DNA of 63,382 nt, filler included, from an uncultured bacterium (GTDB taxonomy: Bacteria > CAZSTA01), in assembly GCA_964609495.1 (NCBI GenBank). It is 23 parts of 23 records of this genome, joined end to end, with 100 filler letters (N's around TTAATTAATTAA, not from the genome) between each part and the next. Parts side by side here need not be neighbours in the genome. Positions count along the whole stretch, not along the records: positions 53,202 to 55,685 come from CAZSTA010000308.1; 22 more parts are not named here. The stretch is one strand, 5' to 3'. Position 1 is the stretch's first letter; each line of letters begins with the position of its first letter. The notes beneath the pieces were generated by a model, which saw only the letters and a program-made list of their open reading frames with translations, did no database searches and was not told where the DNA came from. Below, piece by piece: positions 5,982 to 55,785 of this stretch. Both the position numbers and the translations under genes were made by a program.

Positions 5982-6081
5982 NNNNNNNNNNNNNNNNNNN
6001 NNNNNNNNNNNNNNNNNNNNNNNNNTTAATTAATTAANNNNNNNNNNNNNNNNNNNNNNNNNNNNNNNNNNNNNNNNNNNN

Positions 6082-6746
6082 CCTTGACCGCAACCGATAG
6101 TGGAGGTGCTAAAGGGACCGCGACGGTTAATATAAGCGTCAGTATGGCTCCTCTTGTCTCTCCTGGTCCTGCTCCAACAGGATTGGATTGGGATGGGCAA
6201 TACCTCTGGAATGCGGATGCGAATGATAAGAAGATATACAAGATCGATATCTATGAGGGAAAAGCAGTAGCGGAAATCCCTACTCCAGGGGCGAGTCCGA
6301 GAGGATTGGCTTGGGATGGTGCTTATCTTTGGAATGTCGATCTGATAACGCAGAAGATCCATAAGCTCAATCCCACCAATGGAACGGTAATCAAGACTAT
6401 CTCCTCCCCTGAGGTATCTCCTACTGGTCTAGCTTGGGATGGCGCTTATCTTTGGAACGCTGATTCCTATTCGGGAAAGGTATATAAGATAGATCCCTCT
6501 AATGGCTCAGTAGTTAAATCTTTCACCCTGCCTGGTATCTCTTGTGAGGGATTAGGCTGGGGAGGGGGATATCTTTGGAGTTCCGATGTGTCAGGAAAAA
6601 AGATCTATAAGATAAATCCTGTGAGTGGCACAGTTGTCAAATTCCTTCCCTCGCCTGGTTCAACACCTCAGGATCTAGCTTATGATGGGACTTTCTTGTG
6701 GAATGCTGATTGGAGCGATGCACTGCTCTATAATATAACGCCTTGA
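6082..6746 (+). CDS. beta-propeller protein with GLAWDG repeats, preceded by the end of an Ig/PKD-like domain (5' truncated)
   Basis: Five ~43-aa repeats PxGLAWDGxYLWxxD..KIYKIDP. Confidence 0.8.
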
Positions 6747-6897
6747 GAATGAGGATAATTTACTTCTTGGAGTATATTATCAGAAAAAGGGGGTAAATTA
6801 TCCACTCTAGAATCTACCGAAACTTTTTCTCTAAATTTGAAGTAATATAGGTGGTTTAGGTATTAAGTTATTAGGATAAAAATACAAGGAGGAAAGG

Positions 6898-52973: not shown

Positions 52974-53101
52974 AAGCATGTAAAACTTTGTGCTGGGGAA
53001 TATGATTCCCCCCTCACCCTATCCCTCTCCCACGAGGGGAGAGGGAACTTAATTGAGAGGCTCTCTTGATCTTTTATTTCTCCCCCTCCCTTGACGGGAG
53101 G
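52974..53101 (+). repeat. AAGCAT terminus plus REP-like doublet at contig end
   Basis: AAGCATGTAAAACTTTGTGCTGGGG at 52974; type A 53008-53048; type B 53082-53101. Confidence 0.88.
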
Positions 53102-53259
53102 NNNNNNNNNNNNNNNNNNNNNNNNNNNNNNNNNNNNNNNNNNNNTTAATTAATTAANNNNNNNNNNNNNNNNNNNNNNNNNNNNNNNNNNNNNNNNNNN
53201 NTCCCCTTTTTATGCTATAATTAGAGAAGGAATCTCTAACTATAGGGGGTAGAGGGAAA

Positions 53260-53697
53260 ATGACATTTTTATATACCATGGGGTATGAGGGGGTTAGTGT
53301 TAAAGAATTCGTTAGTAAACTAATGAGCAATAATATCGATATTGTTATAGATGTTAGACAATATCCTCATAGTAGAAAGAAGGGCTTTTCCAAATCCCAA
53401 TTGCAAGCAATTTTAGAAAGTGGAAATATAACATATATTCATCTAGGAGCATTGGGTAGTCCACCTGAGATAAGAAAACAGCTTCGTGAAAGTGGAGATT
53501 ATGACAATTTCTTTGAACAATATAGTATATATCTTAGAAGTCAAATTGAATATATAGATCGGATAAATGAGCTTTTGGAGGATAAGAATTGTTGTCTATT
53601 ATGTCTAGAAAGGAATCCCGAACAATGTCACCGCAAATTAATATCAGCAGAAGTAAAAAAGCGAAATAGTAATGGATTAAGGGTTGTGCATATATGA
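53260..53697 (+). CDS. DUF488 family protein
   Basis: YTMGYEG, IDVRQYPHSRKKGFSK, Y.HL.ALG, CLLCLERNPEQCHR. Confidence 0.93.
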   Translation: MTFLYTMGYEGVSVKEFVSKLMSNNIDIVIDVRQYPHSRKKGFSKSQLQAILESGNITYIHLGALGSPPEIRKQLRESGDYDNFFEQYSIYLRSQIEYIDRINELLEDKNCCLLCLERNPEQCHRKLISAEVKKRNSNGLRVVHI

Positions 53698-54494
53698 ATA
53701 AACCAGATGAATGGATAGAAAAAGAAATCCTGATAACTGTTAAAGCATATCCCAATAGAAGCAAGAAATATGGAGAAACTGTTTGTGTAGCAGGCATCAG
53801 CAAAGAGGATGGTTGGATAAGATTGTATCCTGTTCCTTTCCGCGATTTAGAGGATTGGCAAAAATTCAAGAAATATCAGGTTGTTAAATTAAAAGTTAAG
53901 AAACAAGAGGGAGACTCAAGACCAGAAAGCCATCGTCCTAATTTTGATGATATGGAAATAATAAGAGAATTATCTACAAAGGGAGACAAAAACTGGACAT
54001 TGAGGAAAGAGTATGTATTGCCAACATTAAGTAATTCAATGTGTGAGATATTAAGAGAACAAGAGAGAAGCGATAAATCCTTAGGAGTATTTAAGCCAAA
54101 GGAGGTGATAGAACTTGTTATAGAGGAAGATACCTCAAAATCCGGTAATCAAAGTATGCAATTATCACTATTTAGTAATAAACAACCGTTAGAAAAAATA
54201 CCATATACTTTCAAATATCACTATAGATGTGATGATCCAAATTGTAATGGGCATGAACAATCGATAAGTGATTGGGAGATTTTCGCATTATATCGAAGAA
54301 TGAAAAGAGAATACGAAGATATAGAGATAGTTAAGGAGAAGGTGAGAGAAAAATTTATAGATCAACTTTGTAGTCCTAAAAGAGATACATATTTTTTTGT
54401 AGGTAATCATTCACGACATCGTAACTCCTTTATGGTTTTAGGAGTGTTTTATCCACCTAGAGATCCTAATTTACCTCTATTCCAATATCAATAA
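53694..54494 (+). CDS. uncharacterised DUF488-associated protein with QLSLF motif and putative Zn site
   Basis: 4-nt overlap with DUF488; TVKAYP..S.KYGETVCVAG..WIRLYP, DSRPES, QLSLF, CxxxxCxxH, DWE. Confidence 0.85.
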   Translation: MNKPDEWIEKEILITVKAYPNRSKKYGETVCVAGISKEDGWIRLYPVPFRDLEDWQKFKKYQVVKLKVKKQEGDSRPESHRPNFDDMEIIRELSTKGDKNWTLRKEYVLPTLSNSMCEILREQERSDKSLGVFKPKEVIELVIEEDTSKSGNQSMQLSLFSNKQPLEKIPYTFKYHYRCDDPNCNGHEQSISDWEIFALYRRMKREYEDIEIVKEKVREKFIDQLCSPKRDTYFFVGNHSRHRNSFMVLGVFYPPRDPNLPLFQYQ

Positions 54495-54504
54495 TCTAAT
54501 TACT

Positions 54505-55685
54505 ATGAATCTCTTTGATTTAGAAAGAGAGAAGAATATCGAAAGGGAAGCTCCTCTAGCTCTGCGGATTCGTCCTCGCACCCTAGAGGAGTTTGTTGGT
54601 CAGGAGGAGATCGTTGGGCCGGGCAAGCTCCTGCGAAGAGCGATAATCGCCGATCAATTAAGCTCTCTTATCTTCTGGGGTCCTCCGGGAACGGGGAAGA
54701 CTGCTCTAGCTAAGATCATAGCCAATACGACCCAAGCGGAATTCGAGCAGTTGAACGCGGTAACCTCCGGAGTTCAGGATATCCGCAATGTGGTTCAGAG
54801 AGCTATGGAACGAAGAGGGATGTTCAATCGGAGGACGATCCTCTTTATAGATGAGATCCATCGCTTCAACAAGGCTCAACAGGATGCTCTCCTCCCCTAT
54901 GTGGAGAATGGCACCGTAATCTTGATCGGAGCTACTACGGAGAATCCTTACTTCGAGATAACTCCTCCTCTCATCTCTCGCTCTCGCATCTTTCAATTTA
55001 AGCCCTTGACGGAGGAAAATATCCGCACTATACTAAATATCGCTCTAAAGGATGAGGAGAGGGGATTAGGGAAATATAAGATTGAACTGGAGGAGGAGGC
55101 CTTGAAGCACCTGATCGACGTGGCTAATGGCGACGCTCGCTCGGCCCTGAACGCCTTGGAATTAGCGGTTGTTACTACGAAACCTGACGAGAGAGGGCTA
55201 AGGCATATCACCCTCGAGGTAGCTGAGGAATCGATTCAGCGTCGAGCGGTGATCTATGATAAGAGTGGTGATAGCCACTATGATACCATCTCGGCCTTCA
55301 TCAAAAGTATGCGTGGCAGTGATCCCGATGCCGCTCTCTACTGGCTAGCTAAGATGATCTATGCAGGAGAGGATCCTCGTTTCATCGCTAGAAGGATGGT
55401 GATCTTCGCCTCGGAGGATATAGGAAACGCTGACCCTCATGCTATATCAGTCGCCACCGCCGTAGCGCATGCCGTTGAATATGTCGGTATGCCCGAAGCT
55501 CAATTATCCTTAGCCCAGGGTGCGACCTATCTAGCCACTGCAGAGAAGAGCAATGCCTCTTATCAGGGATTGATAAGAGCTTTAGATGATGTGAAGAATG
55601 ATAGAACGATGCCTGTTCCCCTTCATCTGCGAAGTAGCTCTTACAAGGGGGCTAAGGATTTATCTCGCGGAGAGGAATATAAATA
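54505..55685 (+). CDS. rarA: replication-associated recombination protein A (RarA/MgsA; 3' truncated)
   Basis: PLA.R.RP.TL, WGPPGTGKT, DEIHRFNKAQQD, GATTENP, SAFIKSMRGSDPDA, ASEDIG.ADP. Confidence 0.97.
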
Positions 55686-55785
55686 NNNNNNNNNNNNNNN
55701 NNNNNNNNNNNNNNNNNNNNNNNNNNNNNTTAATTAATTAANNNNNNNNNNNNNNNNNNNNNNNNNNNNNNNNNNNNNNNNNNNN

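Follow-up and report, generated by a model that had tools for sequence, protein, structure and literature searches.

A conserved clamp-type peptide on the double-OB protein of the DUF488-linked phage-defence candidate PDC-M19

DUF488 is reportedly a member of the rhodanese-phosphatase superfamily, within a RapZ-C/DUF488/DUF4326 clade, and a 2023 analysis by Burroughs and Aravind is said to have predicted for it a novel kind of DNA-end processing, carried out with partners of the oligonucleotide/oligosaccharide-binding (OB) fold in virus-host conflicts. Here, we analyse a gene pair of this type from a window of 63,382 nucleotides (nt; the whole stretch of DNA that was analysed), in which separate contigs of a metagenome-assembled genome (MAG) of an uncultured bacterium are joined by filler. 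The pair comprises a DUF488 gene and a gene for a protein of 266 amino acids (aa), hereafter the partner, which is predicted to consist of two OB folds. As judged from its profile matches, the pair is PDC-M19, a phage-defence candidate (PDC) of the PADLOC database, and the partner carries a pentapeptide, QLSLF, which is a candidate binding motif for the bacterial sliding clamp (the beta clamp, DnaN) and is conserved in bacterial members of the family. The cassette is of a known, catalogued kind; the clamp-type motif on its OB protein is apparently unreported, as far as literature searches reach.

PDCs are a set of 145 candidates predicted from their embedding ('guilt-by-embedding') within BREX, DISARM, and type I restriction-modification (R-M) systems (Payne et al., bioRxiv 10.1101/2024.01.29.577857). 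PDC-M19 is named nowhere in the main text of that preprint (0 occurrences), and its abstract and section 10 do not mention a clamp motif. A search for papers on PDC-M19 returned none, none of the DUF488 papers listed deals with this cassette in its title or abstract, and searches on DuOB and on a clamp-binding motif combined with anti-phage activity found no relevant paper and no paper, respectively. The window pair resembles PDC-M19 in that both genes match its profile sets and adjoin each other, and in that some of their relatives are embedded in or lie next to defence systems, which is how the candidates were found. The DUF488 protein matches the PDC-M19A profiles PDLC04505 (2.4e-44) and PDLC04504 (3.8e-33), and the product of the adjoining gene matches the PDC-M19B profile PDLC04508 (5.1e-71) over residues 9-260. 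The difference lies at the N-terminus of DUF488, as the PDC-M19A matches cover the C-terminal DUF488 part only (profile positions 149-294 of 294 and 89-233 of 234), and the 88-148 extra N-terminal positions of these profiles are absent from the window protein, which also matches PDC-M45B and PDC-M45C (5.9e-19 and 1.9e-16). With the DUF488-DuOB systems, the window pair shares the linkage of DUF488 to a dual-OB protein and possibly also a DUF488 fold like that of Cys-phosphatases and tetrapyrrole/diphthine-type methylases, whereas its partner stays below any Pfam DuOB score.

SocB of the Caulobacter SocAB system and RipA of Streptococcus pneumoniae, which act through the hydrophobic cleft of DnaN (for SocB, PMC9690074), are likewise small, mobile, conflict-type proteins, and their route of action is one that the partner may share. 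The antitoxin SocA carries Panacea, a domain that is also fused to DUF488 in some PDC-M19 relatives. In PDC-M19, however, the constant partner appears to be an enzyme with an invariant active site, and no sequence relationship of SocB or RipA to the double-OB protein was seen, none having been tested for. We know of no description of SocB or RipA as OB proteins. The best fold matches of the partner are proteins of the RPA, SSB, and PriB type, with which it shares tandem OB folds, and RPA70 DBD-C is a zinc-bearing OB domain with which the Cys/His cluster in the second OB fold of the partner can be compared. Identity to these proteins is 5-14%; unlike them, the partner has no acidic SSB-type tail, carries QxxLF motifs, and is sporadic and mobile rather than essential or universal.

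The partner, its clamp-type motif, and DUF488

According to the literature on clamp binding, the bacterial consensus is QL[S/D]LF or, more generally, QxxLF (PMC12309361; PMC9690074), and mutation at positions 1, 4, and 5 of the motif weakens or abolishes binding (PMC12309361). The internal QLSLF of the partner fits the QL[S/D]LF form exactly; it lies in a loop of the second OB fold and, to judge from the model, is accessible there. In an alignment of 135 representatives, with pairwise identity of no more than ~50%, Q156 is kept in 110, L159 in 105, and F160 in 91 sequences, 25 more having L at position 5. These three positions hold 3.20, 3.16, and 2.86 bits, respectively, positions 2 and 3 hold 0.90 and 1.08, and the flanks of the motif, which have indels on both sides, hold 0.7-1.5 bits. 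Because positions 1, 4, and 5 are conserved amid variable, indel-rich flanks, the sequence match is more than chance, and the pattern, taken together with the model, reads as the signature of a short linear motif and not of a core element. Among the copies taken from genomes, 67/80 fit the looser pattern Q..[LMIF][FLW], and 59/80 have F at position 5. A second motif, Q..[LMI][FL], occurs within the last 10 residues of 43 of the 135 representatives and of 10 of the 80 genome copies, compared with 3 of 695 control neighbour proteins; in the relatives, it follows a variable tail.

The fold that displays this motif was modelled with AlphaFold2 (AF2) from the same 135 representatives. The model contains two OB folds, the first with strands at residues 8-18, 21-23, 27-36, 40-47, 62-70, and 79-92, and its top Foldseek matches are tandem-OB DNA binders (an RPA filament, 8oej, at E 2.6e-4, as well as CST, Teb1, LEF-3, TEBP-alpha, and HIN). 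In comparisons with VIA, the first OB fold reaches Z 8.1 to an M. maripaludis RPA domain (3e0e), 7.5-8.0 to PriB, and 7.6 to Rim1/SSB, and the second reaches 6.8-7.1 to RPA70 and to Teb1 OB-C. Thus, the architecture of two OB folds is clear in the model, whereas homology to any one family is not, the VIA Z scores being middling. A Pfam search gave no match for the window partner itself, DuOB (PF22557, dual OB-containing domain) not being reached at E <= 0.1; relatives at 48-51% identity score 25.4-29.0 bits for PF22557, against a threshold of 27. The partner also holds the motifs KYGETVCVAG, WIRLYP, DSRPES, C179-x4-C184-x2-H187, and DWE. C31 is conserved in 80/81, C179 in 81/81, C184 in 79/81, and H187 in 81/81 sequences, which suggests that the two barrels are held together by a zinc site. 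Judging from its fold, the partner most likely binds single-stranded DNA (ssDNA) or DNA ends.

Docking on the clamp was modelled with the cognate DnaN (L095) and DuOB (L053) proteins of one MAG, each with an alignment. The three DnaN-DuOB runs scored 0.72, 0.52, and 0.58 (median 0.58), with partner pLDDT (predicted local distance difference test) of at least 85 and at least 78% contact agreement between runs, whereas three controls scored 0.00, 0.01, and 0.00. In the calibration of this procedure, 116 of 157 solved complexes and 2 of 215 mismatched pairs reach the mark, and 18 of the 157 solved complexes and both mismatches do so at 0.60 or under. These predictions lend weak support to a DnaN-DuOB complex and raise its odds modestly.

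DUF488 is modelled as a stand-alone protein with a Cys-phosphatase/rhodanese-like fold. VIA aligns the model with the laforin dual-specificity phosphatase (DSP) domain at Z 9.2, with KAP and PRL at 8.3, and with a baculovirus RNA 5'-phosphatase at 8.0, with PTP-fold phosphatases among the further matches, and also with tetrapyrrole methylase N-domains (CbiL) at 10.2; no sequence relative with a solved structure was found at E <= 0.01. CLERNPEQCHR, in which the C-x-E-x5-C-H-R site is seen, would form the active-site loop, which is of the form C-x9-R and not C-x5-R. Among 57 DuOB-linked DUF488 proteins, 14 residues are invariant, including C115, E117, C123, H124, and R125, and for this reason DUF488 is very likely an active enzyme. 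The bacterial DUF488 proteins of the pair are mostly 142-180 aa long. A Pfam search found no antitoxin-type N-terminal domain in the window DUF488, whereas some relatives bear such domains, namely SocA/Panacea (L033, 7.7e-5; L104, 1.7e-5), MazE/AbrB (L099, 1.8e-6), and HTH_3 (L049, 1.3e-13); the Panacea matches, at 24.0 and 26.2 bits, fall below or near the Pfam cut-off of 25.7.

Gene linkage, mobility, and host domains

The partner family is large. A word-index search gave 3,357 matches, there are 2,273 representatives at 50% identity, and a genome scan confirmed at least 561 copies, which come from Planctomycetota, Omnitrophota, Nitrospirota, Actinomycetota, Chloroflexota, Verrucomicrobiota, Bacillota, candidate phyla, and archaea. 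Neighbourhoods were counted at 80 genome loci out of these copies. DUF488 adjoins the partner in 73 of them, lying upstream on the same strand in 54 and downstream in convergent orientation in 19 (mostly Actinomycetota and Chloroflexota); three of the seven loci without an adjacent DUF488 are contig edges. No third conserved gene was found, the commonest other neighbour family being present at 4/80 loci. Fusions of the OB protein appear to be rare, although the evidence is weak: 864 candidates yielded one partial match to an OB-DUF488 or other fusion (P0270, a 534-aa protein with a KwaB-like portion, at 47% coverage).

Other arrangements were also seen. In a Dehalococcoidales MAG (L069, 4982-7447), a ParB_N-ASCH gene precedes the double-OB gene in the place of DUF488, and a gene for an NYN-domain protein (PADLOC HEC-09, 1.3e-17) lies downstream; this locus resembles a version of the cassette in which another enzyme has taken the DUF488 slot. 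Two loci from Nitrospirota/Thermodesulfovibrionales (L011 and L047, ~5986-6765) hold a solo double-OB gene without DUF488, beside PIN, AIPR, or transposase genes, and each carries a decayed loop motif, QLNFN.

The partner is present on 23 plasmid records, 11 of which are conjugative, and in seven temperate Gordonia phage records, where the lysogeny module holds it next after the immunity repressor. In Gordonia phage Nymphadora (NC_031061.1, 3980-5277), gene 43, annotated as hypothetical and located directly after the immunity repressor, encodes the double-OB partner with both QxxLF copies (QEVLF and QISLF), and gene 42, which is convergent with it and bears the annotation 'HipA toxin?', is homologous to DUF488 (33% identity, E 3e-26). 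According to the account in PMC6426606, prophages typically express the genes found at that position of the lysogeny module, and such genes can provide defence; a test of Nymphadora's own prophage genes was not found in the CarolAnn paper. With regard to the neighbours of the pair, PADLOC matches at E <= 1e-10 were obtained for 26 of 249 nearest neighbours (two genes per side) and at 21 of 77 loci, figures for which there is no matched background. At one locus (L005), the pair sits between HmaA and HmaB, and elsewhere the neighbours include type I and type III R-M, AbiEi/AbiEii, AbiU, and DruA. Together, gene order and distribution show that the pair is a tightly linked, self-contained, horizontally mobile two-gene module.

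Archaeal hosts have no beta clamp, and the motif can be followed there. Among 401 genomes from the phylum to which a Methanobacteriota MAG belongs, the partner was found in 20, with 15 full-length copies, 13 of which adjoin a longer DUF488. One of the 15 (L098), a bacterial-like copy on a 2.7-kb contig, was set aside, which left 14 archaeal copies for comparison. QxxLF is present in 9/9 aligned bacterial copies versus 1/14 archaeal ones, which mostly have D, E, S, or L at position 5. That F is lost in hosts lacking a beta clamp is consistent with docking on the clamp in bacteria. A motif of the type that binds PCNA, Qxx[I/L]xxFF (PMC9690074), was not found as a rule in the copies of this phylum, the loops of which read Q-x-T-L-[D/E]-G or FTVNLDG; one archaeal loop (L111), QKTLDFF, is one residue short of it. 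Two copies on Sulfolobales plasmids (pSOG2 of Sulfolobus islandicus and pBEU9E1 of Saccharolobus shibatae) have an expanded loop with QATL[D/E]QYI, which at the level of sequence agrees in part with the PCNA motif. These plasmid copies may belong to a different cassette type, since DUF488 was not detectable in the genes downstream of them (164-169 aa; phmmer E > 10). On pBEU9E1, which like pSOG2 is a crenarchaeal conjugative plasmid, a ParB-family gene lies just upstream of the double-OB copy.

The original prediction had described a horizontally acquired two-gene system in which DUF488 is joined to an uncharacterised partner bearing a clamp motif, with phage restriction as a possible function, and this agrees in part with the present results. 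Structure prediction and fold search yield a tandem OB model for the partner (pLDDT 94.4), QLSLF keeps positions 1, 4, and 5 in bacterial members and lies in a low-confidence coil, and the linkage to DUF488 holds in homologues (73/80); the same linkage, together with the absence of any neighbour family above 4/80 and the AT-richness of the pair relative to rarA, bears out the idea of horizontal acquisition. The phage-defence idea is matched by the listing of the cassette as PADLOC candidate PDC-M19. For the expected enrichment in defence neighbourhoods, 21/77 loci with PADLOC neighbours are suggestive, but the figure has no matched background.

The locus on its contig

The region of the pair is one whole MAG contig of 2,484 nt (G000:C308), and nothing to the left of position 53202 or to the right of 55685 is physically linked to it. 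Because the window consists of separate contigs joined together, the sulfatase and other genes past the runs of N are not neighbours of the pair. The runs at 53103-53201 and 55686-55730, and others elsewhere, hold the six-frame stop linker TTAATTAATTAA. The contig carries three co-directional open reading frames on the plus strand, namely the DUF488 gene, the partner gene, and rarA (Table 1). The partner start overlaps the DUF488 stop by 4 nt (ATGA, 53694-53697), a gap of 10 nt (54495-54504) separates the partner stop from the ATG of rarA, and the G+C content of the pair is 0.31-0.35 versus 0.46-0.50 for rarA. The earlier description of two coupled genes, AT-richer than a rarA gene starting 10 bp downstream, is therefore accurate, and all of the motifs quoted with it are present, including CxExxxxxCHR, QLSLF, and the terminal LPLF.

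Table 1. Features of the contig that carries the DUF488-partner pair, in window coordinates
Feature	Position	Strand	Remarks
Contig G000:C308	53202..55685	.	100% match to C308:1-2479; filler linkers at both ends
TATAAT hexamer, possible -10 box	53216..53221	+	39 nt upstream of the DUF488 ATG; read by eye
DUF488 gene, 145 aa	53260..53697	+	Pfam PF04343 3e-30, 105.8 bits (gathering threshold 22.2); PDC-M19A 2.4e-44; AF2 pLDDT 95.8
Putative active-site loop C115-L-E117-R-N-P-E-Q-C123-H124-R125	53602..53634	+	between strand 111-115 and helix 125-135
Partner gene, 266 aa, predicted zinc-braced tandem OB, DuOB-type	53694..54494	+	PDC-M19B 5.1e-71; AF2 pLDDT 94.4, predicted TM score (pTM) 0.91
First OB fold, ~aa 1-95, including C31 (53784-53786)	53694..53978	+	VIA over model residues 1-94
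Second OB fold, ~aa 107-254	54012..54455	+	VIA over model residues 107-254
Internal QLSLF, aa 156-160, candidate beta-clamp-binding motif, second OB loop 146-170	54159..54173	+	coil, block pLDDT 66
Cys/His cluster in second OB fold: C179, C184, H187	54228-54230, 54243-54245, 54252-54254	+	conserved
C-terminal NLPLF, aa 259-263, degenerate copy of QxxLF tail	54468..54482	+	tail block pLDDT 68
rarA/mgsA (AAA+ ATPase), 3' end cut by contig edge	54505..55685	+	Pfam MgsA_C 2.4e-51, AAA_assoc_2, AAA

The TATAAT hexamer upstream of DUF488 is absent from the list of a two-hexamer promoter scan, and any -35 element would fall on the contig edge or outside it. The promoter/terminator scan of the contig gave 12 promoter-like sites, where 6.2 +/- 2.7 are expected, as well as one terminator-like site, inside rarA; it found none between the partner and rarA and nothing informative between the genes. 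Given so short a spacing (10 nt) with no terminator-like site in it, rarA is probably co-transcribed with the pair in this MAG. Nonetheless, no rarA homologue was present within 6 kb at any of the 80 other loci (0/80), and the gene looks like an incidental neighbour, found here by coincidence, whose position is not to be over-read. The replisome link via RarA that had been proposed for the pair rests on one accidental junction and is not upheld.

Several observations concern the assembly. The source genome comprises 3.78 Mb in 349 contigs, and its DnaN has at most 36% identity to those of the nearest genomes compared. The last 72 codons of rarA lie on another contig, C107, the end of which overlaps C308 at 94% over 83 nt, which suggests strain variation at the C308/C107 junction. 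The rarA end on C107 (G000:C107:10231-11813, minus strand) differs from the C308 copy by two residues in the overlap, and beyond it lies a gene for a 455-aa methyltransferase-like protein (UPF0020 / N6_N4_Mtase matches). At the end of the contig that precedes C308 in the window (53008-53102), there are G/C-rich palindromic repeats, e.g., ccctctcccacgaggggagaggg and a second similar unit, which resemble hairpins of the repetitive extragenic palindromic (REP) type and may have broken the assembly.

Possible modes of action and their meaning for the family

We tentatively read the pair as a mobile conflict cassette, in which an RPA-like binder of ssDNA or DNA ends docks on the clamp and works with a DUF488 enzyme that acts on DNA ends; we give this reading a chance somewhat short of even. 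Within it, the partner would dock on the sliding clamp by means of QLSLF, displayed from the flexible loop of the second OB fold, and in many relatives also by means of the second QxxLF at the C-terminus. It would hold adjacent ssDNA or a 3' end and present this end to the co-encoded DUF488, which would add or remove a phosphate-linked group on the nucleic-acid end. The likely outcome would be that an invading phage or plasmid which relies on the clamp of the host is hindered in its replication.

Several points weigh against this interpretation. With regard to the motif, 13 of the 80 bacterial copies deviate from the loose pattern, the C-terminal copy in the window has N in place of Q, and Q is kept in 7/14 archaeal loops (Q together with L in about half), so that some of its residues may be kept for a different partner or for the fold. 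With regard to the complex, the prediction used the cognate pair of a relative and not the window proteins (dnaN of the window genome is split between contig C230, the end of which encodes 323 aa, and contig C80, the start of which encodes 46 aa); a score of 0.58 lies in a weak zone, in which most predictions are wrong unless the pairing had a good prior likelihood, and the score applies to the pair as a whole, the motif not being singled out as the docking part. Moreover, clamp-peptide complexes are abundant among solved structures, and the DnaN-DuOB pass may reflect memory of them. For DUF488, the VIA Z scores of 8-10 to Cys-phosphatases and tetrapyrrole methylases stand beside Foldseek matches that are all weaker than E 0.001. 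The defence-neighbour count, besides having no matched background, includes several matches to generic methyltransferase models, and the PDC systems themselves are predictions, as section 10 of the preprint presents them (Payne et al., bioRxiv 10.1101/2024.01.29.577857). Finally, the 10-nt spacing and the lack of a terminator make a local functional coupling to rarA possible.

A bolder version of the clamp-docking interpretation, which we consider rather unlikely, would see the cassette as an immune effector whose peptide tracks the clamp type of its host, with QxxLF in bacteria and QATL[D/E]QYI, resembling a PCNA-interacting peptide (PIP), on Sulfolobales plasmids. Upon infection, such an effector would take hold of primer ends loaded with the clamp and of ssDNA at the fork, DUF488 would cap or uncap the DNA end, and replication that depends on the clamp would be shut down, either for the invader or, as in abortive infection, for the cell. 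If true, this would represent a defence principle aimed at a replisome hub, following a logic like that of SocB and RipA but with an RPA-like scaffold and a new DNA-end chemistry.

The same cassette might also operate without the clamp, if QxxLF were a convergent likeness and the loop contacted DUF488, closed the DNA groove, or bound another host factor; this we regard as doubtful, although it deserves serious consideration. It would account for the persistence of Q (7/14) and of a hydrophobic residue at the fourth position in archaea, which have no beta clamp, and for the decay of the loop to QLNFN in the two solo copies, as expected if the loop serves the partnership with DUF488. The weak-zone complex score, in which the motif is not singled out, is likewise compatible with it, and bacterial clamp motifs are described as variable and hard to call (PMC9690074). 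However, conservation is confined to positions 1, 4, and 5, which are the determinants of clamp binding, and the flexible C-terminus, a classical site for such motifs (PMC9690074), repeatedly bears another, independent copy. Furthermore, it is F that is specifically lost in archaea, a PIP-like variant appears in Sulfolobales, and all three controls of the complex prediction scored 0.00-0.01. A further alternative, which seems improbable to us, is a toxin-antitoxin-like or abortive module, in which the double-OB protein would be the effector, occupying the clamp cleft, coating fork ssDNA, and arresting replication in the manner of SocB and RipA, and DUF488 would neutralise it or reverse its effect, either by binding or enzymatically. 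Clamp-targeting toxins are documented, SocB being one that binds the clamp cleft via a clamp-binding motif (PMC9690074), and Panacea domains are reported to neutralise many unrelated toxins (PMC8832971). The upstream position of DUF488, with its 4-nt overlap, is the classical position of an antitoxin; some relatives have DUF488 proteins with the Panacea, MazE/AbrB, or HTH_3 domains typical of antitoxins, and the PDC-M19A profiles have their additional 88-148 N-terminal positions. On the other hand, the window DUF488, like most bacterial ones, is without an antitoxin-type domain, the Panacea matches are below or near the cut-off, and the invariant catalytic residues point to an enzyme and not a mere binder. 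In addition, 19 of the 73 linked loci are convergent and not co-transcribed, which would be unusual for a stoichiometric pair.

The location of the pair next to rarA might instead suggest a housekeeping accessory of replication restart or repair, in which the clamp-bound OB protein would mark gaps at stalled forks, DUF488 would clean blocked ends, and RarA would act next. The probable co-transcription of the three genes speaks for it, as do clamp motifs, which are typical of repair proteins (PMC12309361; PMC9690074). Nonetheless, we consider it very improbable, as rarA was not seen near the pair at any of the 80 other loci, the pair has no conserved neighbour of any kind, and its distribution is sporadic (20/401 genomes of one archaeal phylum and scattered phyla). 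Its presence on plasmids and within the lysogeny module of a prophage, and a G+C content 12-17 points below that of rarA, also speak against a housekeeping function.

The window locus itself is an ordinary member of its family on a short contig, and the significance of the finding lies with the family as a whole. PDC-M19/DUF488-DuOB is large, with more than 2,000 clusters at 50% identity, and extends over many bacterial phyla, archaea, plasmids, and temperate phages. The conserved clamp-type peptide on its OB protein provides the first concrete molecular handle on this family, one that is cheap to test, and it points to clamp-loaded DNA ends as the place where DUF488 chemistry may act. If clamp docking is confirmed, the sliding clamp would join the host hubs exploited by mobile immune or addiction modules, and this would help to assign the substrate of DUF488.

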